Source of the DNA: a virus
Taxonomy: Duplodnaviria > Caudoviricetes
Virus record (IMG/VR): IMGVR_UViG_3300012344_000011
Coordinates: 75,825 to 139,824 of that record
DNA: 64,000 bases
Direction: 5' to 3' (one strand)
Shown here: positions 1 through 33,715 of the stretch, in pieces
Layout: the number at the start of each line of letters is the position of its first letter
Numbering within the stretch: position 1 is the stretch's first letter
Translations under genes and position numbers: made by a program
Notes under the pieces: generated by a model
What the model was told of the DNA's origin: nothing
Database searches by the model: none
The model's input: the letters and a program-made list of their open reading frames with translations, nothing else

Positions 1-3000
1 TCTTTTTTACCAGCACCTATTTGCGGCGATAGTATATATCCACCATCTTCATTAATATCTATTCCAACTCCATCTCAACCATTGATAGAAGCTAAAGAAT
101 AAACATTAGAAGTGAAACAAATTGGAACAACAAGCTCCGCAATTTGTTCATTTTTATCATCTAAGATTTTTATACTGATATTATTATTTGAATAATTAGC
201 ATCAAAAATTTCGTTAGGAATAACGTATATTTCTGATATAACCTCTTCATTATTTTCTTCTTTGAAAAACTGTGATAATACTCCAATATCAGCTAAACCT
301 AAGTTATATTGCTCAGTTTTTTCTATGAAATAGAAAGCACAATTCTTAATCAATACATCGTGCTCGTTTAATAGTTCTAATAAAGACTTTTCTTTTTCAT
401 CATCTTTTTTTAACTGACTTTTTATATTTTCTATCTTTGCTCGATAATAATCTAACTGTTGTTTTACAATAGGATAATTATTCTCATTATCGTTATTCTC
501 TTCTACTATTCCATTAAATTTTTCAAAAAGTTCTGTGCAAAGAAAATAACTTTTTATTTTTTCTATAACAACTTTTTCTCCATAAGCAAGTTCATCCTTA
601 CCAATGTTGACAGCTAACAGAGAAGTCTGTCCATTATTGATATATTTTCTTAGTTGATCTATACTATCAACACTTGCCCTGTTATAAGAAATACCTAATT
701 TACCTATATATTCAGAGCTTTCTTTATAGCTTGTCATCGTAGTAGAAAATTGATTTCTAATATTCTGTAATATATTATTTATTTTTTCAATTTCATTATA
801 TTCTGTCTCAATTTCATTTATCAAATCATTATATTGATTGTATATATCTGAAACAGAAATGTTTGACCATTTGAAAGCATTTTGTAAATAGAACTCTTGA
901 TATATCTTCTGAAGAAGGTCTCTTACAGTAGAAATCAAATCAGAAATATTTTTCTTTGAAGACAATAATTCTTTGAATTGTTCATTTATTCTTTCACAAT
1001 TTTGACTATCATCTTTCGCGATAATATTCTTGATACTGTTAATAAAATTATTGGCATTCTCTGCAATGTTGTCTAATTGAAGTTTTGTCCCGCCTTGTTT
1101 GCTATTTTTTGTAAAAGATATAGTAAAGTTTGGTCTTAAATAGCTTCCAGATTCTATTGGACCACTTTCAACGCTCCAAATAATTTTACTATTATTGAAT
1201 AAATTTTTATTCATTTTTAGCGCAACTCCAATAGAACTGTTGAATTGCGGGTTAGCATTGTCCGCATCATAAATAATATAATTTAGTGTTTTAGAATTTA
1301 CTAAATTGATTGGAGTACTCGAATAATTATAACCAAGGGAATATTTCAAAACAGGAATATTATAATAATTATAATATTTCTTTCCATCAAATTTTATTTC
1401 ACCTTTTACTGTTTGATAATTATAGAAAGCTCCACTTGCATTGTTCTTTGTAATTGCACCGGTTTCTTTCTTAATATCAAATTCTTTTACAGTTTGCGGC
1501 GAACCTTTTCCAAGAAAAGACCAAGTTTTAGAAAAATTCTCTGAAATGGGCTGAGTGTTTTGATATAAAGACATTTTTAGTGAAGTAAAATCAATAGAAG
1601 CATTTACATATAAACCATTGTTATCTTTTATATTCCATATGTCGCCATCTTCTTGTTCGATGAAGCATAATTTGTTATCATCTTCAGGAGAAAAGATTGG
1701 ACTAATTTTTGCAACAAAGTTTGTTCCATTTGTGCCAGGCTCACCAACTTTGCCAAAATAAAAATTAGTATCAGCTTTATAAATACTATCTTTGTAAACT
1801 ACTGTTGCAGTAATAACATTGTCAGTAGCTTCCATGTCATATTTTTCTTCAATTTGAAGAGGAAGAATTTTTCCATAGAATCTATTTTCATTTATGTTGT
1901 AGTCTGGTTTTTTGATCAAGCTTTTTCCTTGCGGCAGCTCCCAATAGTAAGTGACATCATCTAGAGACATTGGCTCATTAGTAGTAGGATCTCTAAATTC
2001 AATTTCAAGATTCTTTATTTCGAGTGGAGTCTTTTTCTTATCACTCGCGGGAGACATACCATTTTCATCATATTGAAAAACTTGATTTCCATTCTTAATA
2101 AAGACATAAGAATTTATTGATAGATTTGCCAAATTATTTGTTAGTGTAATTGAAGCAGAACCCCGCAAGCTATCATTCCTATAAACTTGACAACAATATT
2201 CTACATTTTCAGGTTTGACTTTTAAAATATTTCCATTTACACCTTTTATAAAACTAATTCCTTCTACCTGAGAAATTAGTCTTGCATAATCTGCTCTAAT
2301 AAGACTTTTATCTGAAACAGTTGTAGCTGCATCTAATTTAACTTTTTGTTCATTTTCTAGCTCTTCTTTTGTTTTTTCTAAGAGACAATATTCACCATTA
2401 TCGTCTCTCTTGGACCACACAAAACTAAATTCTGTGTCAGAGACATTATCTTCAAAAGAAGAGTCTTTGTCATTAATATAACAAGTCAGTATTGGAGAAC
2501 CATTACTTATATAGAAATTAGTGCCTTGACTACTTTTAATAGTAATATTATAACTATTAAAATTATTATAAACATTTATTGTATTAGCAATAGCTTTATT
2601 TTCATCGCAGACACAAACACACTTAATAGTATTTGTATTACTCTTACAATCATCAATGTTTAGAATAATTGTTTTTTCTTCTTGATTAATTTTTCTATAA
2701 CCAGAGCCAAGCCGCCCATTATAATCTACACTCTTGGAATTTATAGATACATCATTGATTCCCCAAATATATTGATTACAATTAGTTTCTTTATGATCTT
2801 TGAAAACATTTGCGGTCAATGTAATTTTATCATCTATTTTTTCAAAGGAATTTCCATTAGGAGAAGTAATTGAAACACAATATCCATCTTGATCAGAAGT
2901 CATCTTTGATAAAGCATATAATTCTAAATTATTGAATTTGACATATCCATAATCATCTTTTGTATCTTTTGTTACAAATCCAGAAGTATAAAGTAAAATA

Positions 3001-3749
3001 CTTTGAATATAATTGAACTTAACACCTTCAAAATTAAAAATTGCATATTGAGAAGAGCCATTATAGAATTTCATTGGATTACCAAGCATCTTTTCAGTGT
3101 TTAGAATATATGAAACATTAGATGTATTTTCTCCAATAGAGACATTCATAGTAATGATAATACCATAATCACCACTTGCGTTTGTTGCTAGATTTGTTAA
3201 GAAATTTGCTTTTATCAAAATAGAATCTGCATCATTCAAATTGTTTGTAAAAGACTTTTCATCTACGTCTACCCAAATAGGATTAGTATCTTCTTCGTCT
3301 CTATCTTTTTTATAACAAAAATTATAATTAGAAACTTTGTTACAATATAAAATTGAAGGGAAAGCAGTATAACTTCTATTGTCTGCGTCACTTCAAGTTT
3401 CTTTATTTATAATTATATTTCCACCAACTTTAGTATAATTTGATAGAATATTTGCGTTTGTTCGCTCTTCTTCTTGATCAAGAGGTGCAATCTCAGCTAA
3501 ACCGAGGATATATTTTACATTATCAAAATTACCTTGCGGGACTTGCACATAAACAAGATCGCCAATATTATATTTTTCAGAATTATTACTATAAGCTGCG
3601 ATTTGTCCGCCATTATAAGAAGCTGTATATTGATTGTCGCTTTGAACAGAAACAATTGATGCTTTGACCGTTTTATCACTGTTTGTGCCAGAGCTGTTTT
3701 CGCTAATAATTGACATAGCTTTTAATAGTGCTCCTGTATAATCTGCCAT
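1..3749 (-). CDS. Large baseplate/tail structural protein, 3' end beyond window; TGA=Trp at 3393 and 75
   Basis: ORFs 3393..3749 and 75..3239 are in one frame joined by TGA (KET-W-SDAD). The frame continues through TGA at 75 (SING-W-DGVGIDINEDGGYILSPQIGAGKK) to the window edge. Lies directly downstream of the tape measure. Confidence 0.8.
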
Positions 3750-3871: not shown

Positions 3872-6800
3872 TTAATAGTTGCGGTGTGCTGATTGATAAG
3901 CCATATCTGCGATATTAAGTAGAGCGTTTTCAATTTCAATAGAAGAAGTGACATTGGGGAAGTCAGCTTTTATTTCAACTCTTTGCTCAATAGTATCGCC
4001 ACCATTTGCTGCAAATAATTTGCTGTAGTCAGTAATATTATTACCTAGAATATTCTGCATTTGCCGCACTTGACTTACTATATCTAATAAGTTCTTAGTG
4101 TCAGTTGCGTTAAGAACAAGTTCTTTTTGGTGAAGAATTGCTAAACGACCTTCTTTTTCATCAATGCCGCCATTCCAAGAGCCAGTGTAACCGCCAGAGT
4201 CATATCTCTTAAATCTTGTATAATAATCAGTATCGTGCTTTCAATTATTCATTTTTATGAAGTATCTTACCAAGTCAACAAAACCAGAATAATTACCCCA
4301 CCATTCTGCGGAAGCAACACCAGCTAACCTATTTTCATAATCAGGATCATCATCATCATTACCATATGACGAATAGTTGCCCGCATTAACAATTGAACCT
4401 GCAATTGCTTCTGCCCATTCATAGTTAGATAATGAAGCAAGATCTTTATCACTAGACCATACTCTACCAGAAGCATAATTCTTGATTTCGCCAGGCATTT
4501 TATCTAAGCCACTTACAGAATTTAGCGCATCATTCGCAGTTTGAGATAATGTTTTGAACTCATTATTCAAATTATTGACAATTGTTGAGGCTTTGTTGAA
4601 CTGCGTCTGTAGCTGTTTAACAATTTCTTGAGCAGCCTTGGCCATCTCACTAGTGATTTCTATGCAAACTTCGTCAATGCTTTTCTTAAGAGAAATCAAA
4701 TCAGCTTCAAATTTTGGTGATTCAAAACTTAGATTGTTTATTTTACTCTGTAAAGAGAAGATGGAAGCTTCAATAGCTTTGACCTGTTGACTGCTAATAT
4801 TTGCATTACCACCAAGATCACCATAGATTGTATCTAATGTTTCCTTCATTTTAGTAGAATAATCAGTTAGGCTATTTTCTAAGGCATTTAACAAATCTCC
4901 ACTATATTTGTTATATTCATCTAATACACCTGTAGTACTTTGTTTGACCTGTCCCGCAAGATCGGTCATCTTAGTTGTTACTTCACCAATTTTAGTATTT
5001 GTATCATTTGCAAATAGCTGGAATCTTGAATCAATTTCATTGATAGTTTCAGTAGAATCAGTTTGCATTTGTTTATAAATACCAGTAAGTGATTCTGCAT
5101 TTTCATTGGAAATTGTTTCTGTAGACTGAGCAACCTGTTGTAAAATTTCTAAACTATAAGTTTTTATGTTTTCAGATTGACCAGCACTATACTCTCCAAG
5201 AGAAGCCATAACTTCTTGGATGCGGGCTTTGCGCTCTTCCGCATCAAGATTTGCATCTGTCCATATTTCAATAATTTTATCTCTTGCATTGGTAATTTCA
5301 GAAATTGTATTATTCTCTGAATCAAGGAGAGCTTGCTTAGCGATGTTATATGCATTAATTTGTGCATCTAATAAATCTTGTTGCTTTTGAGCTACATCTG
5401 ATTCATCTGCTGTATAAACATAACTATAGTTGCCACTAGCATCTCTTTGTAATCGCATTTTTGTTTTCGCAGATTGAGCATCTTGTAAAGCAATTTGTTT
5501 CTCTAGAACGCTTAGTTGTGCATTAGCATAATCTATGTCGGCTTGCGTTAACTTATCTTTTTCTCTTAGATAATCTAATTGATCGTTCATTTGAGCAGAG
5601 ATTTGTTGCTGAATGCCAGTATTTTTCTGCGCCGCATCATTCAACATCTTTTGATAAGAGAACTGCAACTTTTGAATGTTATAAGCTTTATTCATATCAT
5701 CTAAATGAGCTTCTTCATTGCGTTGCCGCATTTCCCACTGACTCTGCATCCAATCTACATCACCACCAAGAAGAGAATTGGCAAATTCATTAGCAGCTTT
5801 GTTAGCTTGAATTTCAAGCCTTTCAGATATTTTTTCCAAGAGAGATTGTTCAGTATCCATCTGCTCAGATTGGAGATCTGTAATTTTATCTTTTGCATCT
5901 TGTAGTGCCTCTTCGTTCTCTTGACTCCAATGAATATTAGCTTGTTTTGTTTCTTCTAATTTATCAACTATAGATTGCCAATAATTGATTCCAGAAGATA
6001 AAGCATCTAGTTGTCCGTTGTATGCGGAAACGGCCAAATCATTAGCTGACAATTGATAATCATAACCTTTTTCACCGTAGAAAAGAGAAATTTGTTCAGA
6101 TAGACTATCTATAGAATCAATCAATCTATCATAAGAATCAAAGCGTCTTGAAATAATATCTTCCGCAGTATCTATTGCATCAGAAATTACTTCGTTTAAA
6201 CTCTCAAAACTGTTTATAATAGATTCTGATACAGTCTGAACTCTATCCATTGCATCTTTAAGATTATCATATGCGGCTTGCGCGGTAACCTCAGAATATT
6301 CATCTGTACCTTGCTTGGCAATTGCTTCTTGCATTTGTTTTTGCGCTTCTTCAAGTTGCTGCAAAGCTATTAGCTGTGGAGAACTATAAGAAGCAGATTT
6401 ATACTCTGCATTATCTTTTTCTTGCGCAGCAACAGAACCAATCGCTCGCATAACCGCATCTACGAAATCATTATACCCAGCAAAATCTCGTAGAACGTAT
6501 TCTTTGTCTCTATCAGGGTTTGCAGTTAAGATACTTTTTACAGCTGCGTCATAAAGAGCTTGCGCTTCATCTTTTTTACCTTCTTTTAATAAGTCAACCA
6601 TTGTGTGGAAGTTACCTTTATCAAAGACAGGACCTATGTCTCCGCCGCCAATAGTGCTCCAATCTACATTTGGATCTTCTCTTGGACCTAATTGATTATA
6701 GATTTGATTTGCACCAGATTGCTCAAGAGCACTATCGAGTAATTTATCACGAGAAACTTGTTTATCAAGGCCAAGCATTTTCTTTACATCATCTTCTGTA

Positions 6801-9800
6801 ATGTTAGAGAATGTTTTTGTCTTACCGTTTCAATCTGTCATTTTTGCAGTAACACCAATAAGGTCTTTTATTGTGCCAGAAGCAGATTCTATTGCTGGTG
6901 TAAATCTTGTTGAGAGATTAGCTCCATTGTTTAAGAATTCAAATACTTTTTGATTAAACTCTCTAGAGTCTTTTATGGCATTGATCCATTCGTTTAGCAT
7001 ATCAGACAATGTATCAAATATTTTGTCATTTGTATCTTGAATATTGTCTACACCTTCACGAATTTCTTTCTCATAACCTTCTTGTTTATCAAGAAGATCT
7101 TGATAATTTTCCCAAGCTTCTTTGGCTTTATCCATATTATCTTTTGCATCAGACAAAGCATCATCAAATTCAGTTGTATCTTCATCATCTTTATGCTCGT
7201 TATAGGTGTCAACAGCGTCATTATAAGCCGCAACAAAAGCATCATAAATATCTTTTGCATTAATTATATTACCATCAATATCATATTGAAGTTCAATACC
7301 AACCATATCTGCATAGCCACGAATAGTTTTATTACCATACTCGTCTTCAGCTTGATTCTTTTGGATCTCTATTTGTTCTTTGGCGAGGTCAACTTCTTGT
7401 TGCTTTAACTTTAAATACTCTTCATAACTTTTCTTTAGTTTTTCAAGATTTTTTACTTTCTTTGAACCATATAATTCATCATCATATTCAGAAAGTACGT
7501 CTTGTTTTGCGGTGAGACGAGAAATTTTATTTTCTATCGGCTTAAATGGATCTCATTTACCTTTTTCAGCCTTTTTAGGTTTAGCAGCTTTTTTAGAACC
7601 GCCACCTCCGCCGCCGCCGCCACCTCCGCCGCCACCTTTATTAGATGAACCAACAGAACCGTTACCTGTGAATTTTATGCCGCCAGTGCCTTCACCAGTT
7701 TTAATCGCAGCTACTTTTATTGTTTCGTCAGGTACGGGTTCTTGTCTTGAGGTTACTTCTTCTTCAATATCATATGTGTCTGGATCAGATCCCGTCTTTT
7801 TAACTGTTTGATGCTTGTACGTAACTGTTTTGGTCTGTGGGAGGTGTGTATCTACTTCTTCAACCTCTGCTTCCATACCAACAGATGCAAGGAGGGCATT
7901 CATTTGATCAACACTCATACCTGTTGCTAAAGCTAGTTGATTTAATGAGTTTACCCAATTATTATACGCTTCTTGTGATTCAAATGCGCTTGAAACATCG
8001 TCTCCCGCTTGCAAACCAGCGGCAGCTATTTGATTAAATCCATCTATAACAGTTTGTTTATTTGAATCAAAATTTTGTAATGCAGTGTTCATTTCTGATA
8101 GACCTGGGTCTAATTGAATATCATCGTTTACTTTAAGACTTTCTTTAACGGAAGCAGCTATAGTTGAAGATTTTTCTAAATTTCCAACGACATCTTTTCC
8201 AACAGCAAATCCAAGTTGATTGATAGCTTCTTCAGACCCATCTGCGGCTTCTTGCAATAATTCCATATTTTTAGCAGAATCAAAGAATTCTTTTGATAAA
8301 TCTAAATCTTCAGATGTACCAACCAACTTAGCAATAGTTTTTTCTAATTGTTTCGTTACTTTAACATAATCTAAATCATATTTATTACTTTTTTTGAGAA
8401 TATCGCTTCATTCTTCTCAGTTTTTAGATAATTCTTCAACGCCTTGATTCATACGCTGGTTTTGAATCGCCAGGTTCCTCGCAGAAGTTGCATCTAAATC
8501 ATAGGCTTCTGCTAGAGCTTCGGCTTGCTCTACTACTTCATCATAGTTTAATTCATATTTTTCTGATTCAGATTTTGTAATTGTTTCGAGCTGCTTATTA
8601 TATTCTTGTTCAGTTGCTGCTTTTTGTTCTTCTGTTTCATCACCAGCGTCTGCTTCACGCTTTGCTGCTTTTAATTCATTGAAAGAATTGGCTTCAGAAA
8701 TTTTATCTGTTGCATCAGCAAATCCTCTGACATTTTCTGTTCCATTTTGTAAGGCAGCTATAAATTCATCTATTGTAGGATAAGTTTCAATCATTTTTGC
8801 TTGGAACCCATCAATATTGTTCACATAAGCTTGAAGCGCTGCCATTTTATCGTCAGCAGTTCCAGTCTCAGTATCTTTAAAACTTGAAATTTTAGAACTT
8901 AAGTCTTCAGCATATGGCTTTGATAAATCAACCATTTTAGAAGCAATAAGTTTATCCTTCATATAATCTGAAGAATAACCATCTTCTACAAGAGTTCTTT
9001 TACCATCTTCACCAATTTCATAGAATTCACCGTCAACGTATTCAATAGCATCGTCTAATTCTGCAAATTTTTCTTTTAAAACTTCATCTGAATAAGCATC
9101 AACTTCTTTCTCTGCTTCTTTGCGATACTCTCCTCCTTCTACCATCTTCTTAGCAACTGCACTTTGCACAATTTCTTGCCCAGTCGTACCAATGTTAGTA
9201 TAATTTTTATCATTACTCATCATTGAACCAACTTGAGCTTTTTGAATATTTTTTATTTGATTGTCTGTAGAAATGTAGTTTGCCCCAATTTTTTGTAGAT
9301 CGGAAAGGTCTTGACTAGAAAGCTCAGAATACATTTTGTTAAGTTTTTCTTTTGATATATCATAAGTTTTAGAACTATTCGCTTCTTTAAAAGCTTCAAG
9401 AGCTTCCTCGGTAGAAGTAAAACCTGTTTTTGACTCAGCAATAAATTTAGAAAAATCTTTAGTTATTTCATCTGCCGCTCTTTTATCTGATTGCTTTGAA
9501 TTTGATTCTCCATATCCGTGATTTACTGAGTCGTATAATGAATTAGAAATTTCATCGCCTTGCACTTTTGCTTTGCTCTCTAAGACTTTTATTTGTTCAA
9601 AAGCTACAGCGGCCTGAGCTTTCTGAAAATTATCGTTTGCTTTATTTGAAGCATATTTTTGAGCAGCAGTTGTGATTGATAACTCACCATTTTCGCCTGT
9701 TTCAAAAATTTCACCATCAAAATCTTCTAACAAATTTTTATAGTTATTATAAAAATCTCATGCATTCTTATTAGCTTTCTGAATCGCTTCAGAAAATTCT

Positions 9801-15946: not shown

Positions 15947-15968
15947 GTTACCTCCTTTCCCCGCATAT

Positions 15969-15999
15969 AAAAAAAAGAGGAACTCACAAGAGTTCCTCT
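15969..15999 (-). terminator. Intrinsic terminator after tail tube gene
   Basis: AGAGGAACTC-TTGT-GAGTTCCTCT plus T-run. Confidence 0.75.
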
Positions 16000-16018
16000 C
16001 CTTTCTTGGATAAAATTA

Positions 16019-20423: not shown

Positions 20424-20434
20424 TCTTATCACCT

Positions 20435-22314: not shown

Positions 22315-22330
22315 TACACACCTCCCTATA

Positions 22331-22888
22331 TTACTCTTCTACCCTACGAACCTTCCCCTGTTCTTTCTCTGTAGAACCAACTCTGCGGCCAGTAGGTTTA
22401 TTTTCTTTGACCTCTTGGTCATCTTGTTTTGACTGCTCAATTAAATTAATCATAGAAGTAATGTTTCTACCAGTAGCCTTTGTGATTGCGTCTCGTTTTG
22501 CTACGTCATTAAGTTTCATCTGAACAGCTTTAGATACGATCATATCTACAATACCTTCTGGGGCAAAATCTAAAGCATCTTTAAGCGCGTCTAAAGAACC
22601 ATAAATAAGAATCGCCTCAACATCTTTTTCTGTCCAATTATATTCATGAGCTAATAGATCATCACTGATACCAAATTCTTTTGCTAGCTCCGCATTCTTA
22701 ACACTAAGACATTCATCTAAAAGAACACCGCCGCCTTTAGTGTAATGTAATGCGCGTAGCTCAGCCGCACTAACTTTTACAATAGCTTGACCAGGAAGAA
22801 CTCTACGTTTACCTTCATAAGAAATATACCCAACAGTATGATCAGTTAAGTTCTGAATCTCAATCAATTCATTATCATCAACAGCCAT
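22331..22888 (-). CDS. Hypothetical virion-associated protein
   Basis: 185-aa ORF with AAGGAG RBS directly after the capsid gene. Confidence 0.6.
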   Translation of the reverse strand: MAVDDNELIEIQNLTDHTVGYISYEGKRRVLPGQAIVKVSAAELRALHYTKGGGVLLDECLSVKNAELAKEFGISDDLLAHEYNWTEKDVEAILIYGSLDALKDALDFAPEGIVDMIVSKAVQMKLNDVAKRDAITKATGRNITSMINLIEQSKQDDQEVKENKPTGRRVGSTEKEQGKVRRVEE

Positions 22889-22907
22889 TTTTATCTCCTT
22901 TTATCTC

Positions 22908-22936
22908 TAAAAGGGAGGAACGTTATTGTTCCTCCC
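22908..22936 (-). terminator. Terminator after major capsid gene
   Basis: GGGAGGAAC-AATAAC-GTTCCTCCC-TTTT. Confidence 0.7.
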
Positions 22937-22948
22937 CATTATTTTTAA

Positions 22949-24046
22949 TTATTGCCAAGTAGACTCTGTATTACGAGTACTCTTCTTGAGGTTGCTATTC
23001 TTGTAAATACCAATCCAAACTAACTGACCAAGAGAAGCAATAGTACCAACGCCAACCTTAGTGTAAGTCTGAATCTCGCGGCTCCAGTCATCAGTCTGAT
23101 TTTCTACTTCGCGAACCTGAGTCTGACCCTCAAAAACAATCTTAACAGGTTTTTCAGAACCAGTAGGAATTAGGTAAGCTAAGGAAGGATCAACAACCTT
23201 CTCTGCATTAGCATCGCCAATGCCATAAACTAGAGACTGATCAAGAATAATTACATTGTGGCCCTTATACTGACCAAGCCAGTTCTTATTCCAAAGCTCA
23301 TTCTTCATTTCATTAGACATACGAGCATCAGAAGGAATCATCTTGTTAGCAAATTCCTGTGTGCAGTAAATGGTAGCCTTACCATATGTATCAACAATTG
23401 CAAGTAACTCGTCCATAGTCTCTTCATCAAAGCCAGCAAACGTAGCCTTGTTAGCCGCAGGCAAAGAAGAAACCATAGAAGCTAGAGCCTTAATAATCTC
23501 CTGGTAAATTAGTTCATCAAGACCCTCTAACATTAGAGTTGTAAACTCAGAGAACTCCCAACGACCATCAAGGAATTCCTCAAAGCCGATGCGGGCAGCG
23601 CCACCGATAGCACTCGTCTTAATATCAATCTCAGCACCATCAAGCATGAATGTCTCATAACGACCAGCTAAACCGACCTTAGAAACGAAAGACTTAGCAC
23701 GTCTCTTGGACATTTCAGTAACCTTGATACGATAATGGTAAGTATCACCCTGGGGAACAGTAACAGTATCAGCAAACTGTTCGTACTGTGCTTCAACACG
23801 AGGAGGAAGAACTTCATCAATTGTCTGCTCAATAATAGCGAAAATTGTATTCTGATTCTCCTTATAAGCACGATAATTAAACTTATCATTAACATGTGTT
23901 AATGCCTTGAACTGATCACGAAGAGCAGCATTTAATTTCTCACTAGAGTAATTCTCGCCGTTGTAAGAGAAGGCAACGGGAGCATTTTTCTTTGCAGACA
24001 TTGCCGCAACAGATAACTGCTTAGCAGTTTCAAAATCAAAACTCAT
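22949..24046 (-). CDS. Major capsid protein
   Basis: 365 aa, IFAIIEQTIDEVLP..AIGGAARIGFEEFLDGR; strongly biased codon usage; follows scaffold and decoration genes and precedes a terminator. Confidence 0.8.
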   Translation of the reverse strand: MSFDFETAKQLSVAAMSAKKNAPVAFSYNGENYSSEKLNAALRDQFKALTHVNDKFNYRAYKENQNTIFAIIEQTIDEVLPPRVEAQYEQFADTVTVPQGDTYHYRIKVTEMSKRRAKSFVSKVGLAGRYETFMLDGAEIDIKTSAIGGAARIGFEEFLDGRWEFSEFTTLMLEGLDELIYQEIIKALASMVSSLPAANKATFAGFDEETMDELLAIVDTYGKATIYCTQEFANKMIPSDARMSNEMKNELWNKNWLGQYKGHNVIILDQSLVYGIGDANAEKVVDPSLAYLIPTGSEKPVKIVFEGQTQVREVENQTDDWSREIQTYTKVGVGTIASLGQLVWIGIYKNSNLKKSTRNTESTWQ

Positions 24047-24068
24047 TATTATTTCCCTTCCTTCCTAA

Positions 24069-24599
24069 TTAAGCTTCAACGACTTCTAGTTTTACGCCAG
24101 GCTCACCATCGGGCATGGTGTAAACTTTAATAACCTGTAAAGCAACGGGAGCAGTAGCGGCAGCAGCCTTCTTTAATATACCACCCTCACCAACAGTAAC
24201 ATAATCACCAACAACGACAGGAAGCTCAGCCGCATTAGCAAAGCAGTTGGTTGTAAAAGTGTCACCAACAACGAGTTTGATAATGCGAGGAACCATTACG
24301 CCATCAACAAAACGGCTCTCCTCCATTGCGTAATCTTTATGAGCCTGCTTGCGCTCGTCATAAAGCTTCTCTTCATTAAACACCATCCAAGCATTCTTAA
24401 GCTCTTTGGCAAGCTCAAGACAACCCTTAGCCGCATCACGAACAACAAACTGACCGTTCATTAAAGCACCGTCAGCAGACTCTCGAATAGTAGTCTTTGC
24501 CGCATCGCTTAAAGGTAAGTCACCACGCACTTGACCAGTACGAGGAGCAGATAGGAAATTAGGCTCTACATAGCCGTAGCCACTTCTAAAATTAGCCAT
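24069..24599 (-). CDS. Putative capsid decoration/stabilising protein
   Basis: 176 aa between scaffold and capsid; GYGYVEPNFLSA..VGDTFTTN..YTMPDGEPGVK. Confidence 0.65.
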   Translation of the reverse strand: MANFRSGYGYVEPNFLSAPRTGQVRGDLPLSDAAKTTIRESADGALMNGQFVVRDAAKGCLELAKELKNAWMVFNEEKLYDERKQAHKDYAMEESRFVDGVMVPRIIKLVVGDTFTTNCFANAAELPVVVGDYVTVGEGGILKKAAAATAPVALQVIKVYTMPDGEPGVKLEVVEA

Positions 24600-24637
24600 T
24601 ATAACTTATCCCCTTTCAAATATTCTAATCAATTTTC

Positions 24638-26062
24638 TTATTTTGTAGCGCGGAGTGCTTTAACAATAGCCGGCACGTCCGTCATGTCAACTGCTGAGTC
24701 TAAAGAGAAAGTCGTAATAGGACTTGCTTCTTTTTCAGGCTCAGTCTCAGCCTCACCTGTAATCGTTGAAAAATCAACATTCTTATTTACATAAAGTAAA
24801 GCTAACTTAGATTCAATTTCAGATAAAGAGTATTTAGACTTATTCTTAATAATTTCTGCTTTATCTTCATCACTAAGCATATGATATTTAGCAATCAAAG
24901 CATCTTTTTGCTCATTCTCAATACCAAGCTTAAAGCTACGTAAAGCTTCAAGTTCAGAATTTGCTTCAGCTAACTGTGCTTCAATTAAGCTATAATTATT
25001 TTTAAGTTCAGCAAACTGTGTTTCTAATTCTTCTAGACTATGATTTGCGGAAGGCTTCTTTTCATCATCGTCATCGTCAGAATTTTCTGGCTCTTCGTCA
25101 GAATCTTCTTCCTCTTCATCTTCCTTCTTGTCTAGAGCGAAACTGTCCCCAGAGTCACCAACATCACCAGCATCAGCTGCTTCGCTAGATTCACCAGCAT
25201 CGCTAGTCTCGTCAGCTTCGTCCGCAACTTCAGCGTTTTCCTCTTCTGCCATAGGATTAACTTCAACTGGCTCGTCCGCAGGTTTCTCTTCAATTTCCAA
25301 GAGAGAACTATCAACATTGCTGTTACGCTTAATCTCTAATTCTGGATCCATCGTTATCCCTCCTTCACTATACTGTAAAGCTTCTTTTAATTCATTCATC
25401 ATTGTAAATAATGTATTCATAAACAAGGAGTTATCACAAGAAAAATTCTTGCTAACATTCTTTTCTGTTACAGAAGCTCCTTCAAAGCAGGGTTCAACAT
25501 CAGAACCTAATATACACAATTTACTAAACGTTGCATCATTAATTATAAAAAGTTCAACACCAGAATTATAATTTTCTGCCCATTCTCCATCTAAACTTTG
25601 TGAGTCTAATTCCATTGATTGCGGCATACCCTCTTCAAGGACCTTAGCAATCTCAGGAAATTGACCTGTCCAAAGATAACCTTCTGTCATAAGATATTTT
25701 CTCTCTACCTCATTACCAAATCTATCGGTATCAGTGAAATCTTTGAACCAAACCTTAGCATTAGGAGCAACAAAACCATATGGTTGTGTTTTGCAAGAAA
25801 ATTTAATTTCTCCATCCTCAATAGTGATTACCTCACCATGATCTCCAAAGTCGTTTTTTTCTTTTATAAAAGCTGCGACAATAGGAGTCCCAGGGAGAGA
25901 ATTTGCCATATTCTTAGCTACTTCCTCTGTGATATAAGAACCATTGCGATTCTCTCCCACATAGAGTACCTTGATCTCACATTGAGAAATTAATGGATTA
26001 TAGGGTTGAATGTTAATAAATTGCGGTGCCGCAATAGTCTCAACAGACTGATTTCTTAACAT
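24638..26062 (-). CDS. Prohead protease/scaffold protein
   Basis: N-terminal globular domain (YVGENRNGSYI..GYLWT..QSMEL..LCILGSDVEPCFEGA) plus acidic coiled-coil C-terminus; between portal and capsid. Confidence 0.75.
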   Translation of the reverse strand: MLRNQSVETIAAPQFINIQPYNPLISQCEIKVLYVGENRNGSYITEEVAKNMANSLPGTPIVAAFIKEKNDFGDHGEVITIEDGEIKFSCKTQPYGFVAPNAKVWFKDFTDTDRFGNEVERKYLMTEGYLWTGQFPEIAKVLEEGMPQSMELDSQSLDGEWAENYNSGVELFIINDATFSKLCILGSDVEPCFEGASVTEKNVSKNFSCDNSLFMNTLFTMMNELKEALQYSEGGITMDPELEIKRNSNVDSSLLEIEEKPADEPVEVNPMAEEENAEVADEADETSDAGESSEAADAGDVGDSGDSFALDKKEDEEEEDSDEEPENSDDDDDEKKPSANHSLEELETQFAELKNNYSLIEAQLAEANSELEALRSFKLGIENEQKDALIAKYHMLSDEDKAEIIKNKSKYSLSEIESKLALLYVNKNVDFSTITGEAETEPEKEASPITTFSLDSAVDMTDVPAIVKALRATK

Positions 26063-26078
26063 CTAATCTCACTTTCTT

Positions 26079-27668
26079 TTATCCACTACTCTCAATATTT
26101 CGTAGTGTTTTTTCAGACTTTTCATCATCTGGTTTTGGCGGTCGTCCTCCCTGATTGTCACTGGATGGCAAACCGGTCTTTTGCTTTTCATCATTATCAT
26201 TAGTGGATGCCTTATTTCCACTCATGGTAGATGACATTTGCGGCGGAACAAATAAATCATTGAGATCCATTATTTGATTCTCAAAAACGGCTGTTGCAAG
26301 AATGTCTGATTGAGAGTGTCCAAGAGCAACTTGAGGTAATAATTTGGAAAAACCAAGTTGTGTTTGTTCTTTGTAGATTTTAGAGAGATCTTTATAATTG
26401 TAAATTGTTGTTGGTAACATACCAACACAATACTTTAGTCTTTTAGCATTCTTATTGAAAGGAGCTAAAAGTCTCTCAGTATAATCCGCAAACTGTGATA
26501 ATAAATCATTCATTGTTGCTTCGTCATTTGCAATTGATTTATCTAACGCCGTCTGCCCATCTGTATTGAATTGCTTTTGGCTAACGCCAGCTTCATTATA
26601 AAGTGAGCGTTCAACTCTTTCAAGTTCATCAATAGACGAGGCATTACCTTTATCAGCTAAATCCGCAACATCAACATCCGCAAACGTTGTCAAAACATCA
26701 AGTCCAATAGCATCACCAACCATATTTACTACGTTGTTATGTAATGCATTAGCTTCTGCCACATCGAAGATTAAATCTCCATTTTTGTCAATTGGCATTT
26801 TCTGTATGATAAGTTTGAGAAGTTGTTGCTGCATTTTAACTTTGTCTAACTGCTTGGCTTCTTCCAAGTCTAAAATTGCGGGAATAACTGAAATGAATAG
26901 CGGCGCGTCACTACCACTTAAGTTAAACTTCACAGTTTTTGACGGATCTAATAGAAACCAACCAGCTTCATCGCCATTGAAATCTTTTTGCAAAGAACCA
27001 TTCTTATAGGCGATATAAGCTTTTTGAAATTCTTTAGGGAAACTCTTCAAAACTTTTAATCTGTAGATGTTGTCCGTAAAGCAAGCATCAAAAAACTTAA
27101 TATTAAACTCCACCGCCGCTATGCCGTTAACTTCATATCTTGAACGGCAGTAGTCGGCGGGTAGTTTCTGCAAATAAACGGCTGTTGGCTCATCAATAAT
27201 ATAGCCATAATAGCAGCCTTGTTTGATAACATCTAAAGCATATCTTCCAAAATTTCTCTTTAGTTTACAGTTATCTAAGTATGTACTAGCCTTCATCCAT
27301 CCTTCAATGACTTTCTCATCTTTTACTCTTTCATCATACCTATGTGGGGTTATGAACCAGTCATATCTGTATAGATAAGCCATGTAACGGCAAAGTCTTC
27401 CGTAGATACCACTTCTTAAAGCAAAGTATTCAGAAATACGTCTAAGCTCTGACACATTATTATTGTCAATTGCTCTTTCAATATCTTTTCTATCATATTT
27501 TCTCTTTCGTGTAGAACCTAGATAGTCGCTTACAATAGAAGAAGTAAGACTACCATTCAAAGACGATTGGCCTACCTTGATTTTGGAAAAATCAAGAGTG
27601 GCCTTCGTTGCTGTTGATTCGCTCTGAAGTCTAAAATCTCTTTGACTTCTATCTCTCAAAGTAGCCAA
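26079..27668 (-). CDS. Portal protein
   Basis: 529 aa after terL; C-terminal GGRPPKPDDEKSEKT tail typical of portals in this gene order. Confidence 0.8.
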   Translation of the reverse strand: MATLRDRSQRDFRLQSESTATKATLDFSKIKVGQSSLNGSLTSSIVSDYLGSTRKRKYDRKDIERAIDNNNVSELRRISEYFALRSGIYGRLCRYMAYLYRYDWFITPHRYDERVKDEKVIEGWMKASTYLDNCKLKRNFGRYALDVIKQGCYYGYIIDEPTAVYLQKLPADYCRSRYEVNGIAAVEFNIKFFDACFTDNIYRLKVLKSFPKEFQKAYIAYKNGSLQKDFNGDEAGWFLLDPSKTVKFNLSGSDAPLFISVIPAILDLEEAKQLDKVKMQQQLLKLIIQKMPIDKNGDLIFDVAEANALHNNVVNMVGDAIGLDVLTTFADVDVADLADKGNASSIDELERVERSLYNEAGVSQKQFNTDGQTALDKSIANDEATMNDLLSQFADYTERLLAPFNKNAKRLKYCVGMLPTTIYNYKDLSKIYKEQTQLGFSKLLPQVALGHSQSDILATAVFENQIMDLNDLFVPPQMSSTMSGNKASTNDNDEKQKTGLPSSDNQGGRPPKPDDEKSEKTLRNIESSG

Positions 27669-27677
27669 TGTCCCTCC

Positions 27678-28046
27678 TTAATAACTATTTATCAAGTTCA
27701 TTAGATAATCATAACTTAGCTTATTCTCTTCTGTAAAAGGAATCGTAATAAGTTTTAAGTTATGGTCTAAACAGTATTTTCTTTTTTTAGCATCATTATG
27801 CTGTTGACGATAAAGTCCTTTTGCCCCACCAAATTTGGGAATGGCCATATAATGTTGCCGTCCATTATATTCTATCAAGCAATCAAGATTTCCATCATCA
27901 TCAAATAAAGCGAAGTCAAACCGCAAATGCTTACCATTCTCTGCGGTCAAGTCATCAAATATATATTCTTCTTCAAAAGGAATATTTCCATATTCTAAGT
28001 AAGAATGAATCTTTCTTTCGCCTTCACTAGACAGCAAATCAATCAC
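27678..28046 (-). CDS. Vsr/DUF559-like PD-(D/E)XK endonuclease
   Basis: SEGERKI..LRFDFAL..LIEYNGRQHY..DAKKRKYC..LITIPF. Confidence 0.7.
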   Translation of the reverse strand: MIDLLSSEGERKIHSYLEYGNIPFEEEYIFDDLTAENGKHLRFDFALFDDDGNLDCLIEYNGRQHYMAIPKFGGAKGLYRQQHNDAKKRKYCLDHNLKLITIPFTEENKLSYDYLMNLINSY

Positions 28047-28133: not shown

Positions 28134-31100
28134 CTAATTTTTAGATCCAATTTTAGTGAACAAAGTCATAGCACTCAAATCTCTACTTGCTCTTCCTTTT
28201 CCTTTGTCCTCTTGGAGCTTGCAATAATAAAGACCATAAATCAAAGCAGATACTTTATCGTGCTTGATTTTTGCGTTTGCGGGCTTGAGGATAATAGTTT
28301 GTCCCTCAGATTTATCAACCAAATTGGCAAGCTGTTCCCGCAATACATTAGTAAGAACAAAAGGCTTGAGGTATTCATTTCTTTTTTCAATAGACATTTT
28401 TTGCCCACTACTTTGAGACATAAGTTTGTTTTTAGCAATACTATCATCAATTAAGAATTTTAGTTTACCATGCTGCATCTGCGTTTGGCAATAAGAATAC
28501 ATTTCAGAGTTGAGAGTAGCGTTTGCCCGCATTAGATACATCGCATTATGAATAGTATCTGGCGTCTCAAAGTTTTTATATTTTCTTCTTCCTGTTTTAG
28601 GATCTGGATCATCGTTGATAACACCTCAGTTATATAAGACTTCTCCTGTTTGCGGATCTACTTGATCTGTTACTAAGAAGTCTACTAGACCTGTACCTAA
28701 GCCATTAGCGTCAACCACTGCTACTTTACAGCGGTACTGTTGGAAAATTTGTTTGATTCTAATTGCTTGTTGTCCAAAGTGTTCCGCATCAATTGTATAA
28801 ATATTCACAATTTTTTTGATTGGTACGCCTGTCAAAGATGGCATTACTTTGATCACTAAAATTTCAGTCGTACAATTGAAACGACCAACATCAACGCCCA
28901 AGAGGTAGTATATCTTAGGAGTGTTTTTACCCGAAGGAGTATATTCAGGTAAGTTGATAATGCGGTTGCGGTCAAACACTTCTGTACTAAAGAATGCGGC
29001 TTCCACATCTCCTGCTCAATTAGAGTTATATTCTCTTTCAAATGTTGCTTCATTGAACGTCATATAATCCAATATTTCTATTGGTACTGACTATCTCTTA
29101 CTTAATATTATATTAAGAAACCCTTTTCGAAGCACTTCTCACTAGTGCCCCTACTTCTGTAAACCAGAATAGTCGATACAGCTTCAATTATTCTTCATAT
29201 TTTTATAAATATGAAGAATAAAAGCTTGCCACGGGATTACCATATCATAAAGACTTAGGCTTCCCCGTTAGCTTATTTTAGTAAATAAACCCCGCTGAGA
29301 AACGGAAAAAGTTTTTAGGGCGCGTTCTTCTTTCACCCTCAAGTTTGAGGTCGCTAACGAAAGAGCCAGAGATAAGCTTTTCCGCAACTGGGATTCTCCA
29401 GTCTCCACCAAAAACAAAAGCCTGATCTGGTCTAGCAACCATTTGACACAACATTTGAATTAGTCTATCATAAGCATAAGTATTCTTATATCCCGCAGAC
29501 GTAACAAAAGTTTGCGCTTGGTTCAAAATTTCATTTTCATCTACACTTCCGTCTGGAAGTCTTCTAGAAACATTAAGAGTAGGAATAATAACTTGCTGTA
29601 GCATATCTTGGTCTAATGTTGCAGCTTCTTCCATCACATATATTCTACGTAAATCGCCAATTTACGCACGTTTTTAACTGCTGCATATCACTATGCAGAT
29701 TAGACTATATCTTCTTATATTTATAATATAAGTTCCCTTTTTCCACTATCAGTGGCTTATAGTGTACGATTTTCATCTAGTCGTTGAACCTTTTGCTATC
29801 CGCAACTTGGCTGCTGATTGTCTAATCTGTTTACTTTTTGAACTATCACGCTTACCATTTCTAGTTACGTTGTAGTGTAAACAGTCCTAAAGAGTTTCCA
29901 GCAATTAAGGGAATTTATTGAGCTGAGCTGATGGATAATGTTAACCCAGCTTGAAAACGACGTCCTCTTGTTTTATCAGAGCACGCAACATTTTCTATTG
30001 TTGAACCATTTTTAAAAGTATAAATTACGCTATCTTTTGTTTGTCTTGTGCGGACGGTGCCCATTCCACGTGTATCCCAAATAACTTCTTTTGAGAAAGC
30101 TGGAATAAGTTTACAAATTTCTGAAATTTTGTCACTCAAAATTGATGCTGACTGTTCCTTCAGTTCTGTTATCGCAAAGGCTTTTTATCCTTTACTTCTT
30201 ATACTTTTTTTCGTATAAGCTCGGCATATCTTTTCTTCCTATAAAGCAATAGGAGTCGCGGCCTCTTGGTAGGATTATATCTTTTCACCTACTATGCTCT
30301 GCCCCTGACTGTAGTTCCTACAGCCTTCGGTTCGGGTTAGCGTCTCAGCCTTCCCGCTTAGTTCCGCGATTTATTTTTACTAAATTACTTTAGTAGAGGG
30401 CAAGTTTAGTATTTTGACATTCTTTATAATTCAAATATTTTTGATATTTTCTATCTAAATAAACAGTTGTATCACTATAAATCAAATCTAAAAAAGCATT
30501 GATTTTTTCTTTATCTCCAGTTTGTATTCTATATGCTCCATCAGGTTTTTCATAATGAACTGGATATAATGAACAATTTTCAAATAAACCAACTTGGTTT
30601 TTCAACCCTTTCAAAAAATCTTGACTACCTAAAATATTCATTCCTAGCTTATTTGCATACCAGAAAGAGCCATCTCCATCAAAGTATCCTCTAAGAAAAG
30701 GTGCTAAAAAATTATTTGGAACTTGTTCTTCATTAGGAAAATTTTAGAATAAGACTTCTACGTGATACACATCCTAGCTTTACTAAGTCTTGATTTATTG
30801 TTTTATTTTTGAATTGATAACGAAAACCACTAAGATTTTCTCTATGATATATTTTATTGTTTCTTCCAATAAAATTTTTGAATTTGACAAGATGAAAATA
30901 ATCTTGCTCTTGTAGAGTTAGTTCAATACCATAGTCATAGTTTTTCCATTATGAATATATCCATCTGCTTCTAAGAATCCAAGTCAATAAGCTTTTTCTT
31001 CATTATCAATTATCTTGAATTTATTTTCATCAAAAAACAATCTAAGCACTCCCTTCACTGTCTATATATTTTTACCCTCAGCAACAGTGAACAAGTGCGC

Positions 31101-31412
31101 ACCTGGATACAAGATTGCTTTTATCATTAGCGACATGACAGAAAGAAATGACTTAGAATAAGCACGGCAGAAAACCGCATATGAATACTTGTGCCGCATT
31201 ATCGCCCGCAATGTAAGTCTTTGAAAAAAGAAAAAGTGGAAAGTGTTGTCAGGATTGAGACTGCATAAATAATCTATGAATCTGTCTGGGTATACTCTCC
31301 AATAGGCAATAGCATCTCTAAATTCATCTAAGTGTTGTAGAAGTAAATCTTCTGTAATCTCAATTTCATAATTGTCTGGATTTTGATTTTTCAGTAAATC
31401 TTTTAGCGCCAT
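28134..31412 (-). CDS. terL: Terminase large subunit, ~594 aa; exons 31074-31412, 29944-30160, 29335-29636, 28134-29060; TGA=Trp at 29016 and 28626
   Basis: Spliced protein has RAYSKS (Walker A variant), AEG|KEQSA, RGRRFQAG-L|MEE (Walker B), VTSAGYK, LEG|TFNEATFEREYNSN-W-AG, LGVDVGR, VVDANGLG and HDKVSAL. Confidence 0.92.
29061..29334 (-). mobile_element. Group I intron 3 of terL, no ORF
   Basis: P1 AGGGT/GCCCT with U.G, P10 GAACG/CGTTC, terminal G; core AACGGGGAAGCC, AATCCCGTGG, TATCGACTA, GAGATAGTC. Confidence 0.88.
29637..29943 (-). mobile_element. Group I intron 2 of terL, no ORF
   Basis: P1 AGCTGGGT/GCTCAGCT, P10 TCCATCA/TGATGGA, terminal G; core AATTGCTGGAAA, AATCAGCAGCC, TTCAACGACTA, AAGATATAGTCT. 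Confidence 0.9.
30161..31073 (-). mobile_element. Group I intron 1 of terL with a decayed LAGLIDADG gene
   Basis: Exon ends GGT, intron ends ...AACTG before AAG GAA CAG; core GCGGGAAGGCTGAGACGCTAACCCG and AAGATATGCC. Confidence 0.88.
30390..31040 (-). pseudogene. Frameshifted LAGLIDADG homing endonuclease
   Basis: EEKAY-W(TGA 30984)-LGFLEADGYI and FLRGYFDGDGSF, with frameshifts in an A5 run (~30943) and a T4 run (~30740). Confidence 0.75.
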
Positions 31413-32638
31413 TATTCAATCTCACCTGCCAACCGCATCGCTTCTTCCTCAATTTCATTTTCAAGATAACGAGAAAATTCTTCTGCCTCTTGATCTGTTA
31501 AGCAATTTGCTTCAGCTTCATCTGCTTGAGAAAGAATGAAGTCATCGTCTAAGAGATTGTCTTTTTGCTGCTGTTCTTGCTGTTGCTGCTCAAGCTTGTC
31601 GATATAAGATTCAATTAGATTACCAAGACCAAGCTCTTTCGTAACAAGATTGTAATTGTATTGCTTCATATCTTTGATACAGAAATCAATTTTATCTTGC
31701 GGGTAGTCATCTGGATTAGGAATATTGGGAATAATGCCACCCTTCTTCTCAACCAAGAAAACCAGCTGTCCAATAGAATCGAAGTCTTTTTGTTGATTTT
31801 CTTTATTTTGTGCTTTGGTTAGATTAGCTGATTTCCGCAATGAATCATAGGTAGAAGAGAAAGATTTATATGCGTTAGTGTCTCCTACTGTTAATGCTTC
31901 ATTCATTTTTAGATAGACTTGACAGATTTGCCGCACTACTGCTTTACTGTCTACATTGAGATCAAACGTTTGTTCGTAATCATGATACATCTGTTCCATT
32001 GACAACCACTGAGAAGGTTTATAATTATCACCCCATTTAGTCGCCATTTCAATTTTTTCATCTGCGGTCAAAGAGCTTAAAATTTCTTTTTCTCTTTCTT
32101 CTTTAGCTTTTTCCGCAGAAGTGTCTGAGAAAGTATATTCTTTTTCAGTATGATCTATACCTCTAGAGAGAGGGTTCAGAGTATTGAACTCTGCCTGAGA
32201 AATTTCTCCCGCGTCTAATTTCGTTTGAAGTTCCATAAATTCTTGTTGAGCTTCTTCTGAATTGACTGCGGCTTGTTTCTCAAGGCTTTTCTTAGTGCGC
32301 TCTTCTTCCAAGAGAGCAAGTTTGACTGTATCTGAGTAATTGTATTTTAGATATTGCGTCATATTCATCATCCGCAAATATCTGCCAAGGACTGATGCAC
32401 TTCCAAAAGAAAGCGGATTTTTGTCATAGGCTTTTTGCGCTTCATCTTTCCAAACTTTTTCAATATAAGGAACATCAAATTTTTCTAAGATTCATTTGAA
32501 AGTTTCAGGCTCGTCATTTTTTATATACATGGTTAGGCAACTTTTGCAAACAGGAAAGCGTGTGTGTTCACGTGTCATAAAGAAGTCTTTTTCAGGACGC
32601 TCTCTGCCGCATTGGTTGCAAACAATTCTTTCAGCCAT
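31412..32638 (-). CDS. Putative terminase small subunit with N-terminal Zn finger; TGA=Trp at 32492
   Basis: ATG at 32638 after AGGAGG; CNQC..CKSC; PETFK-W-ILEKFDVPY in frame with 31412..32377; stop overlaps the terL start. Confidence 0.7.
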
Positions 32639-33715
32639 TTATTCCTCCTTTGCTACTTGATTGCGGCAACACTTGCAAGCGGAATAATATCCATCTTTAG
32701 TTGTGTTTTTGCCAAAGAAGTAAGGATGCATTGGCTTGGATTTGCCGCACTTGCTACATTTTTTCCATTCTGTTGGGCGATGGGCAGAATAGTACCAAAG
32801 TACCCAGTCTTTGCGGGCTTGCTCTGCGATTAGTTTAGGAATGCGTTGACGCCAAATTGAAGAATAATATTGCTCACTATGTTCAATGCCGTCCAGCCGC
32901 ATCCTTTCTTGAATTTCTCTATTGGAAATGCCATCTGTCTTTCATAGGATTAGGTTGTAGTAGGGTGAGTCTTGCGGGAATAGCTTTGATATTAGATCTT
33001 CTAGTTCAATAAGCATTCACCGCACATCATTGGATAAGTGTTCATATGTGTCTTGTTTCAATTGAGAATAATTGCAGAGGAGATATGAAACGTGATCAGG
33101 CTCCAAGAGAGAAAGTTGAGAGTCAATAATAAGAGAACCATCTGGCCGCATCGTAATTTTTTCAGAGATCTCAGCGCAACGATCATTGAGGTTGACTGGT
33201 TTAGCGGTTGTAGAAGGCGTTCCCTTGAGGGATGCGCGAGTAAGGTATAGCTGTTGCCATTGTTCAACTATTTGTTTTTTGATTGAATATTTGCGGCTGC
33301 CCTTACTTTTATTTGCCATTGATGTAAGAGATTGAATGGTTGCGTACTGCTCTTTGAGTTGCGGGAAAGTCTCCAGTTCTTCTTTTGTAATTTTTTCTTT
33401 ACGATCTAAGAGTTGGTTCTTATCATTGTTGATAAGAGAGTGAAGACCATCTTCACCATTCTCAAGAGCATCTATCATTCCTTCGTATGAAGTTTGTCTT
33501 TTATTGATAGTAATTTCTCTATTCTTGGTAGTGATAGAATATTTAGTGTTACGTTCTTTTTTTGTTTGAGTTTTATCAGATATAAAGAGAAGGTAATTTG
33601 ATAAATATTCTAAGAGGTAAGGTGTAAGTTCTTCCTCTGGGGTTTTTGAAATGAAGTTTTCTACTTTTTTGACTCGCTCTTGCGGATCAGTGATTGAATA
33701 ATTTAGATAAAACAT
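32639..33715 (-). CDS. Putative DNA-binding protein with HTH-like region and C-terminal Zn ribbon; TGA=Trp at 33017 and 32942
   Basis: NDVR-W-MLIELEDL..LIL-W-KTDGISNREIQ joins the two ORFs; CSKC..CKCC. Confidence 0.7.

Follow-up and report, generated by a model that had tools for sequence, protein, structure and literature searches.

Positions 1 to 33,715 of a 64,000-nucleotide stretch of a Caudoviricetes genome (IMG/VR record IMGVR_UViG_3300012344_000011, positions 75,825 to 139,824) carry phage genes in which the codon TGA recurs in frame. The recoding of TGA to tryptophan in this phage is real, and UGA very probably acquires this meaning through a code change that the phage brings into a standard-code host. 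Judged from the aligned sequences, TGA is a sense codon at tryptophan positions. A preliminary description of the stretch had made this observation, which is correct and rightly interpreted, and the strategy has already been described for such phages (Borges et al., bioRxiv 10.1101/2021.08.26.457843).

The stretch as a whole, called the window below, is the last (right-hand) 64 kb of a 139,824-bp contig with 34% guanine plus cytosine (GC) and an estimated genome completeness of 96%; positions are those of the window unless marked as genome positions. We compared the whole genome of this phage (G000, in pieces L001-L004) with four IMG/VR relatives, G001 (140.7 kb) and the fragments G002, G003, and G004 (47-65 kb). 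The G000 portal is 69-72% identical to those of six IMG/VR contigs and 59% identical to that of a seventh. More distantly, it shares 37% identity with phAss-1, a gut phage in which TAG means glutamine, and 33% with the 140-kb Enterococcus EF1-like siphoviruses; the phages related by portal infect Enterococcus, Bacillus, and Clostridioides. Megablast searches against GenBank phages returned intron and endonuclease fragments only.

All 22 in-frame TGAs of the preliminary description were confirmed as minus-strand TGA codons, and long frames result when they are read as sense, which bears out its claim that they join fragments into coherent proteins. The tape-measure frame of 3001 codons contains eight TGA codons and no TAA or TAG, against 164 and 199 TAA plus TAG codons in the two alternative frames there; the earlier count of 17 TGG and eight TGA in this gene was exact. 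Coding density from greedy packing of open reading frames (ORFs) was 79.0% under table 11, 84.8% with TGA as sense, 82.6% with TAG as sense, and 87.4% with TAA as sense. This measure does not discriminate because the genome is AT-rich, and we therefore used a readthrough-extension test in its place, in which ORFs of at least 100 codons were scored for an open frame of at least 60 codons past the stop, no code being assumed. Genome-wide, such an extension followed 21 of 52 TGA-ended ORFs but only 12 of 138 ended by TAA or TAG; within window positions 1-34000 the figures were 10 of 19 and 3 of 29, respectively. The conserved genes all terminate in TAA or TAG; among ~150 genes there are about one clear candidate for a TGA stop (genome 15351) and a few near-terminal TGAs that remain ambiguous as stop or sense, and the earlier statement that true stops are TAA or TAG is correct within the stretch.

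If the TGAs were true stops, the genes would be broken by decay or misassembly, or would be fragments with occasional readthrough. One homing-endonuclease ORF is indeed frameshift-decayed, and one gene may end at TGA. However, the conserved frames are interrupted by TGA only, never by TAA or TAG, homologs align in frame before and after the TGAs, and the essential terminase large subunit (TerL) and tape-measure genes would be destroyed. A sequencing error is also unlikely, since relatives that were assembled independently have TGA at these codons too; at 20016, for example, all four do. A caveat concerns 3393, 4241, 6830, 9758, and 10229, in poorly conserved tape-measure and tail sequence, which face non-tryptophan codons in the relatives, with same-frame homology present on both flanks. 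Taken together, we regard true stops as having a negligible probability. The base context after TGA, considered as a sign of avoidance of release factor 2 (RF2), gave a weak signal in G000 (p=0.03) and none in the relatives (p=0.4), and was dropped.

The candidate TGA stop belongs to an early-region gene at genome 15330-15584 (minus strand), which may stop at 15351 in an ATGA overlap with the start of the next gene. Its homologs in G001 and G002 stop one residue further, at TAA or TAG, and the gene that follows it has an in-frame TGA common to G001. UGA may thus serve as both stop and sense in neighbouring genes at this locus.

The amino acid was read from the five genomes, translated in all frames with X at TGA and aligned, keeping the best-scoring frame per region. 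This filter removed the shadow frames (TGA against TGT, TTA, and TCA) that a first codon comparison had shown. At the G000 TGA sites (81 columns), the relatives have TGA in 37 and TGG in nine, i.e., 46 of 81, with Tyr (6) and Phe (3) among the commonest others. The in-frame TGAs of the relatives (248 columns) face TGG 107 times and TGA 37 times in G000, giving 144 of 248, against a background tryptophan frequency of 0.7%. G000 TGG codons have similar partners in the relatives (TGG 273, TGA 107, TAT 26, TTT 26), Tyr and Phe being likewise common, so the two codons behave alike. Gly (1/81 and 6/248), Ser (1/81 and 10/248), and Cys (1/81 and 0/248) were at or below background in the two sets.

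These columns also bear on code 25, in which TGA would mean glycine and the host would belong to Absconditabacteria or Gracilibacteria. Phages with this code are known from metagenomes of gut and mouth (Borges et al.), and ORF structure alone does not separate code 4 from code 25. Instead of the glycine-enriched TGA columns expected under table 25, the glycine counts lie below its 5% background, and the published code-25 phages are recoded in most genes (Borges et al.), unlike G000. An independent comparison came from TerL, whose last exon was searched with HMMER against 1.84 billion representative proteins and re-aligned with X at the TGA sites. The column at 29016 (EYNSN-x-AG) has tryptophan in 85 of 96 homologs outside the clade and remains TGA in three relatives. 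The column at 28626 is occupied by Phe (39), Tyr (24), Leu (23), and Trp (13), and glycine occurs once among 122 residues there and never at 29016. We accordingly give glycine hardly any weight. Alignment to homologs thus finds the TGA columns enriched in tryptophan both within the clade and at TerL 29016, where the preliminary description had read the motif as EYNSN-W-AG.

Its other motif arguments fared as follows. The control with a GIY-YIG paralog is stronger than had been claimed, as not only 13603 but also 13381 and 13183 match a TGG-encoded tryptophan in the paralog at 53531-54184. The reading GEE-W at 17299 agrees with E-x-W, which we take to be the start of the NUMOD4 family motif. 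The LAGLIDADG motif KAY-W-LG at 30984 does contain an in-frame TGA; the ORF itself is a frameshifted, decayed remnant within an insertion in terL.

About one in six of the ~405 tryptophan codons of G000 is TGA (~67 TGA versus 338 TGG), and these cluster in genes for the tail, packaging, and homing endonucleases, and in lysis-adjacent genes. Counts of TGA/TGG in late genes (in G001: tail, tape-measure, packaging, and lysis) and in other genes, with Fisher tests, were as follows.

G001: late 89/32, other 11/125, p=5e-29
G002: late 35/24, other 9/73, p=1e-9
G003: late 31/24, other 7/61, p=4e-8
G004: late 62/22, other 2/10, p=2e-4
G000: late 38/148, other 16/176, p=1e-3

The four relatives write ~55-75% of late-gene tryptophans as TGA and keep their replication genes in TGG; in G001, the TGA share is 74% in late genes versus 8% elsewhere. 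The homing endonucleases of G000 have 13 TGA and 14 TGG. G000 is lightly recoded in a clade whose other members are recoded heavily, and it may capture the gain or loss of a code in progress. Such a split of TGA by module within one genome disfavours a code shared with the host. The preference of the preliminary description for recoding at the level of the phage over a code-4 host is backed by this partition, by the conserved tRNA described below, and by an endolysin predicted to be a peptidoglycan hydrolase.

The endolysin lies in the lysis cassette of G000 (L003:15783-16748, minus strand) and has an N-terminal ELLD amidase-like domain, to which its orthologs (L021:15925-17634, L036:6743-8455, L033:10402-11415) add a GH25-like or ricin-like second domain. 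The gene has ten TGG and no TGA in G000, versus two TGG and six TGA in G001 and G002. Profile homologs of the ELLD domain were found in walled gut and rumen bacteria that use the standard code, such as Eggerthellaceae, Collinsella, and Lachnospiraceae, and none in Mollicutes; the domain is widely shared and so assigns no host. A host search with the single endolysin sequence against genome contigs found nothing. The endolysin homologs exclude classical code-4 hosts without naming the host.

ARAGORN found a single tRNA(UCA) in the G000 genome, at genome 51418-51514 (L003:11418-11514, plus strand), 24.3 kb upstream of the window. This 97-nt molecule has G73 and a long extra arm. A 97-nt tRNA(UCA) also occurs once in each of G001, G002, and G003, i.e., in every tRNA-bearing relative. 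The tRNA(UCA) bodies are of two types, one with a 7-bp acceptor and a 5-bp T stem and the other (type B) with an 8-bp acceptor. Differences between the copies in the stems are compensated, and U-C-C-A in the loop of the extra arm is invariant in the four clade members. These loops read GUCCAAA (7 nt; G000 and G003), a near copy of the anticodon loop of tRNA-Trp, and CCCUCCACAA (G001 and G002). IMG/VR yielded 72 distinct long-armed UCA tRNA-like genes that share this anticodon arm, and 34 of them have xUCCAxx in the hairpin loop of the extra arm. In G001-G003, a small ORF, the tRNA(UCA), a 178-residue gene with a conserved TGA, and the endolysin follow one another on one strand, which places the tRNA ~0.5 kb upstream of the lysis genes. 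In G000, a homing-endonuclease gene and tail-fibre-like genes lie between the tRNA and the lysis genes, which are on opposite strands.

Other tRNA calls in these genomes are also unusual. An Rfam match at window 54352-54424 (minus strand), missed by ARAGORN, has by eye a CUU (Lys) anticodon and a G-A mismatch topping the anticodon stem; it lies in a tRNA cluster at 54275-56455 (Met, Lys, Ser, Leu, Ile, Arg). An 86-nt tRNA(CAU) with a long extra arm was called in G000 (L001:6950-7035, minus strand), and ARAGORN gave a two-base anticodon to a tRNA-like gene in G001 (L024:6206-6277, minus strand), also present in G003.

Several points weigh against a phage-borne reassignment to tryptophan. First, TGA hardly ever serves as a stop, early genes included, which a code-4 host would also explain. 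Second, the late-gene bias of G000 itself is modest (20% versus 8%), and its endolysin and head genes are free of TGA, so any timing role is weaker in G000 than in its relatives. Third, the genome encodes neither release factor 1 (RF1; RF-1 domain) nor a synthetase of the tryptophanyl-tRNA synthetase (TrpRS) type; we therefore infer, as a working assumption, that the host TrpRS does the charging. Fourth, the best Rfam model for the tRNA(UCA) is the selenocysteine tRNA (tRNA-Sec, RF01852), at 44.8 bits in G000 and 42.0 in G001. Fifth, the long arm and G73 are features used by seryl-tRNA synthetase (SerRS; PMC5389517), and the case for tryptophan charging comes from the meaning of the codon. Finally, that the host is walled and uses the standard code is probable on indirect grounds, namely the endolysin homologs and the module partition, which do not name it.

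A host that itself uses code 4, of the Mycoplasmatales or Entomoplasmatales type, with the tRNA(UCA) merely supplementary, would account for the scarcity of TGA stops throughout the genome. It would also account for sense TGA outside the morphogenesis genes, as RecJ, a DNA methylase, and RuvC contain it, together with other homing endonucleases and tail genes upstream of the window; recoding is thus not limited to morphogenesis, and replication genes outside the stretch carry TGA too. In G004, TGA is even the majority tryptophan codon at aligned sites. On the other hand, such a host would not be expected to give 74% TGA in the late genes and 8% in the remaining genes of a single phage, and TGA should dominate at 34% GC equilibrium, whereas 83% of the tryptophan codons here are TGG. 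The phage also has a lysis cassette with a peptidoglycan-hydrolase endolysin, whose homologs occur in walled, standard-code Actinomycetota and Bacillota, and one gene seemingly terminates at TGA in an ATGA overlap. To our knowledge, free-living code-4 bacteria have no cell wall. A code-4 host is consequently improbable.

The fourth and fifth points favour a different amino acid, with TGA read as serine (or selenocysteine or cysteine) and the tryptophan signal reflecting nothing but mutation of TGG to TGA. The sole tRNA with a UCA anticodon has a body of the selenocysteine or serine type, both body types score best as tRNA-Sec, type B has the 8-bp acceptor, and long-armed G73 tRNAs of 8/4 and related shapes are charged by SerRS (PMC5389517). 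The scores, however, lie below the 47-bit gathering threshold of RF01852. While the shape of the tRNA points to serine or selenocysteine, the codon evidence contradicts it: relatives' TGAs face Ser in 10 of 248 columns and Cys in none, at or below background, against 144 for Trp, and TerL 29016 is tryptophan in 89% of the distant homologs and TGA in three relatives. Moreover, the long arm is not a generic one, since the sequence in its loop is conserved and copies the anticodon loop of tRNA-Trp, and up to 24 TGAs per gene exclude insertion of selenocysteine dependent on a selenocysteine insertion sequence (SECIS). Serine or its variants are therefore very improbable, and a phage-borne code change to tryptophan is retained.

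How the phage achieves this can be sketched from the sequences. The phage tRNA(UCA), with its G73, would be charged with tryptophan by the host TrpRS, and the charged tRNA would compete with host RF2 at UGA. The conserved U-CCA loop of the extra arm, copying the tRNA-Trp anticodon loop, may act as a handle for TrpRS. Proteins containing TGA would be completed only after the tRNA had accumulated, so that tail, packaging, and endonuclease proteins would be delayed or throttled relative to replication proteins. We tentatively propose, with somewhat less than even confidence, that the decoder is not a mutated tRNA-Trp: its UCA anticodon would read the codon, and a decoy CCA loop, a second tryptophan-anticodon hairpin, would recruit the host TrpRS together with G73. 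No description of a decoy tryptophan-anticodon extra arm was found in the literature searched.

Several known systems can be set beside this one. NCBI code 4, used by Mycoplasmatales, Entomoplasmatales, and their viruses, likewise reads UGA as tryptophan through a tRNA with a UCA anticodon. In code-4 organisms, the reassignment extends across the host genome and tryptophan is mostly written TGA; in contrast, TGA in G000 is a module-biased minority codon, and the phage needs a peptidoglycan hydrolase. Closest in description are the TGA-recoded code-4 ‘Agate’ phages of animal and human guts, a ~127-kb lineage with predicted Firmicutes hosts (Borges et al.). Their structural and lysis genes are recoded, unlike their replication genes, which keep to the standard code. 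TGA is favoured in a group I intron endonuclease and a tail protein, the phages have a suppressor tRNA for TGA, and their close relatives with the standard code seldom use TGA as a stop (Borges et al.). G000 shares the large genome, TGA at tryptophan, the module bias, the TGA-rich intron endonuclease and tail protein, the suppressor tRNA, and the scarce TGA stops; this resemblance is one of description, in the size of the genome, its code, the bias among genes, and the intron endonucleases. It differs in being lightly recoded (20% of late-gene tryptophan codons), in its TGA-free endolysin, and in a tRNA that stands apart from the lysis genes.

The TGA-recoded ‘Jade’ phages have a code-change operon of tRNA-UCA, TrpRS, and RF1 (Borges et al., Fig. 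S6 legend), which the arrangement in G001-G003 resembles, but G000 encodes no TrpRS-type synthetase and no RF-1-domain protein. phAss-1 of the proposed Phassvirus and the EF1-like phages (PMC10607447) are alike to G000 in portal (37% and 33% identity) and genome size (~136-142 kb). The phAss-1/EF1-like group is monophyletic and stop-codon recoding recurs in it (PMC10607447). The kin of phAss-1 reassign TAG to glutamine via a tRNA(CUA), whereas G000 and its four relatives reassign TGA to tryptophan and the EF1-like phages are not recoded. tRNA-Sec and the allo-tRNAs (Mukai et al., PMC5389517) share with the phage tRNA the UCA anticodon, G73, the long extra arm, and, in type B, the 8-bp acceptor. 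The phage tRNA is distinguished from these by its sub-threshold Rfam scores, by a codon that means tryptophan, and by an arm loop that copies the tRNA-Trp anticodon loop. Published proteomic validation has so far concerned TAG-to-Gln phages (PMC9523058).

For annotation, standard-code gene callers shred the tape-measure, tail, terminase, and endonuclease genes, and table 4 is needed for G000 and its IMG/VR relatives. The clade (one member light, four heavy) is a well-resolved further case of phages that infect standard-code gut bacteria and switch the meaning of UGA for their late genes. Its members are alike in the standard coding of replication genes, the suppressor tRNA of G001-G003 lies beside the lysis genes, and they form a natural series for the gene-by-gene capture of a stop codon. 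The decoy arm may explain how a tRNA with a UCA anticodon has tryptophan identity. If true, it would be a natural device that uncouples decoding from aminoacylation identity, of use for genetic-code engineering if confirmed.

The genes of the recoded stretch that bear TGA, together with the head block, are arranged as follows.

1..3749, minus strand: 5' 3.7 kb of a gene for a 2104-residue tail protein (genome 73259-79573; PHROG 3267 ‘tail protein’); TGA 3393, 75
3872..12877, minus strand: tape-measure gene, 3001 codons; 17 TGG; TGA 12716, 10229, 9758, 8417, 8408, 7553, 6830, 4241
13030..13827, minus strand: GIY-YIG/NUMOD3 homing endonuclease (Pfam GIY-YIG, NUMOD3); TGA 13603, 13381, 13183
14492..15946, minus strand: 484-residue protein without a family match; TGA 14846
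17002..17781, minus strand: HNH/NUMOD4 homing endonuclease (Pfam HNH_3, NUMOD4); TGA 17299 (GEE-W)
19542..20477, minus strand: 311-residue virion-module protein; TGA 20016, the same column being TGA in four of four relatives
20435..28046, minus strand: head block, 7.6 kb, including the portal gene (26079-27668); no in-frame TGA, all Trp as TGG
31412..32638, minus strand: 408-residue protein (PHROG 3314); TGA 32492
32639..33715, minus strand: 358-residue protein with an HNH-like C-terminus (PHROG 5767, labelled sigma factor); TGA 33017, 32942

The tail-protein TGA at 75 is also TGA in G001. The tape-measure orthologs are open for 2858 residues in G001 and 2811 in G004, with 16 and 24 aligned TGAs, respectively. 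The GIY-YIG codon at 13603 is TGG in G001, and the HNH/NUMOD4 gene (17002..17781) has no ortholog in G001-G004. At 14846, G004 also has TGA, with homology on either side, and its ortholog contains seven TGA and two TGG. At 32492, G003 has TGG and the other three relatives have TGA; at 33017, the relatives have three TGA and one TGG, and at 32942 three TGA and one TAT.

The preliminary description had extended the recoding throughout the morphogenesis module. This is true of the tail and packaging genes, but not of the 7.6-kb head block, which has no TGA at all. The portal gene there was named from annotated relatives, and the major capsid protein was not identified by Pfam, PHROGs, or PDB sequence searches. 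Orthologs of the head-block genes in the relatives have zero to two TGAs each, and a 365-residue gene (22949-24046) uses TGG only in all five genomes.

TerL is not a single ORF, and the ORF at 28134-29072 is the last of its four exons. The gene spans 28134-31412 (minus strand) with three insertions, while terL of G001 is uninterrupted; the exon limits, set against the G001 gene, are approximate.

31071..31412, minus strand: TerL exon 1, ATG at 31412
30179..31070, minus strand: third insertion, ~890 bp, with a LAGLIDADG endonuclease ORF; TGA 30984 in the first motif
29942..30178, minus strand: TerL exon 2, 85% identical to the contiguous G001 TerL
29638..29941, minus strand: ORF-less group I intron, boundaries approximate (Rfam RF00028, 70.8 bits, 29681-29953)
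29335..29637, minus strand: TerL exon 3, 84% identical to the contiguous G001 TerL
29061..29334, minus strand: ORF-less group I intron, boundaries approximate (Rfam RF00028, 50.1 bits, 29068-29357), absent from G001
28134..29060, minus strand: TerL exon 4, the nuclease half (PHROG 5909 terminase large subunit), collinear with G001; TGA 29016, 28626

Part of the intron at 29638..29941 (~29813-29907) gave megablast matches to the nrdE region of Staphylococcus phage Twort. The third insertion had no Rfam intron match, and its intron nature is thus something we infer. In a three-frame translation, its LAGLIDADG ORF changes frame twice in G000, with a shift near 30740, and keeps one frame in G002, so that the G000 copy is a decayed gene.

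Two endonuclease-like genes lie in the head and packaging block at 20986-21918 and 27678-28046 (both on the minus strand; PHROG 4645 ‘endonuclease’ and an HNH/homing-endonuclease PHROG). Neither contains TGA, in contrast to the remaining homing endonucleases of G000. In addition, a 148-codon ORF at 15919-16365 (minus strand) covers, in another frame, the 3' 350 nt of a conserved 296-residue virion gene (16019-16909, minus strand) and extends into the start of the 484-residue gene; it may arise by frameshifting or be there by chance.

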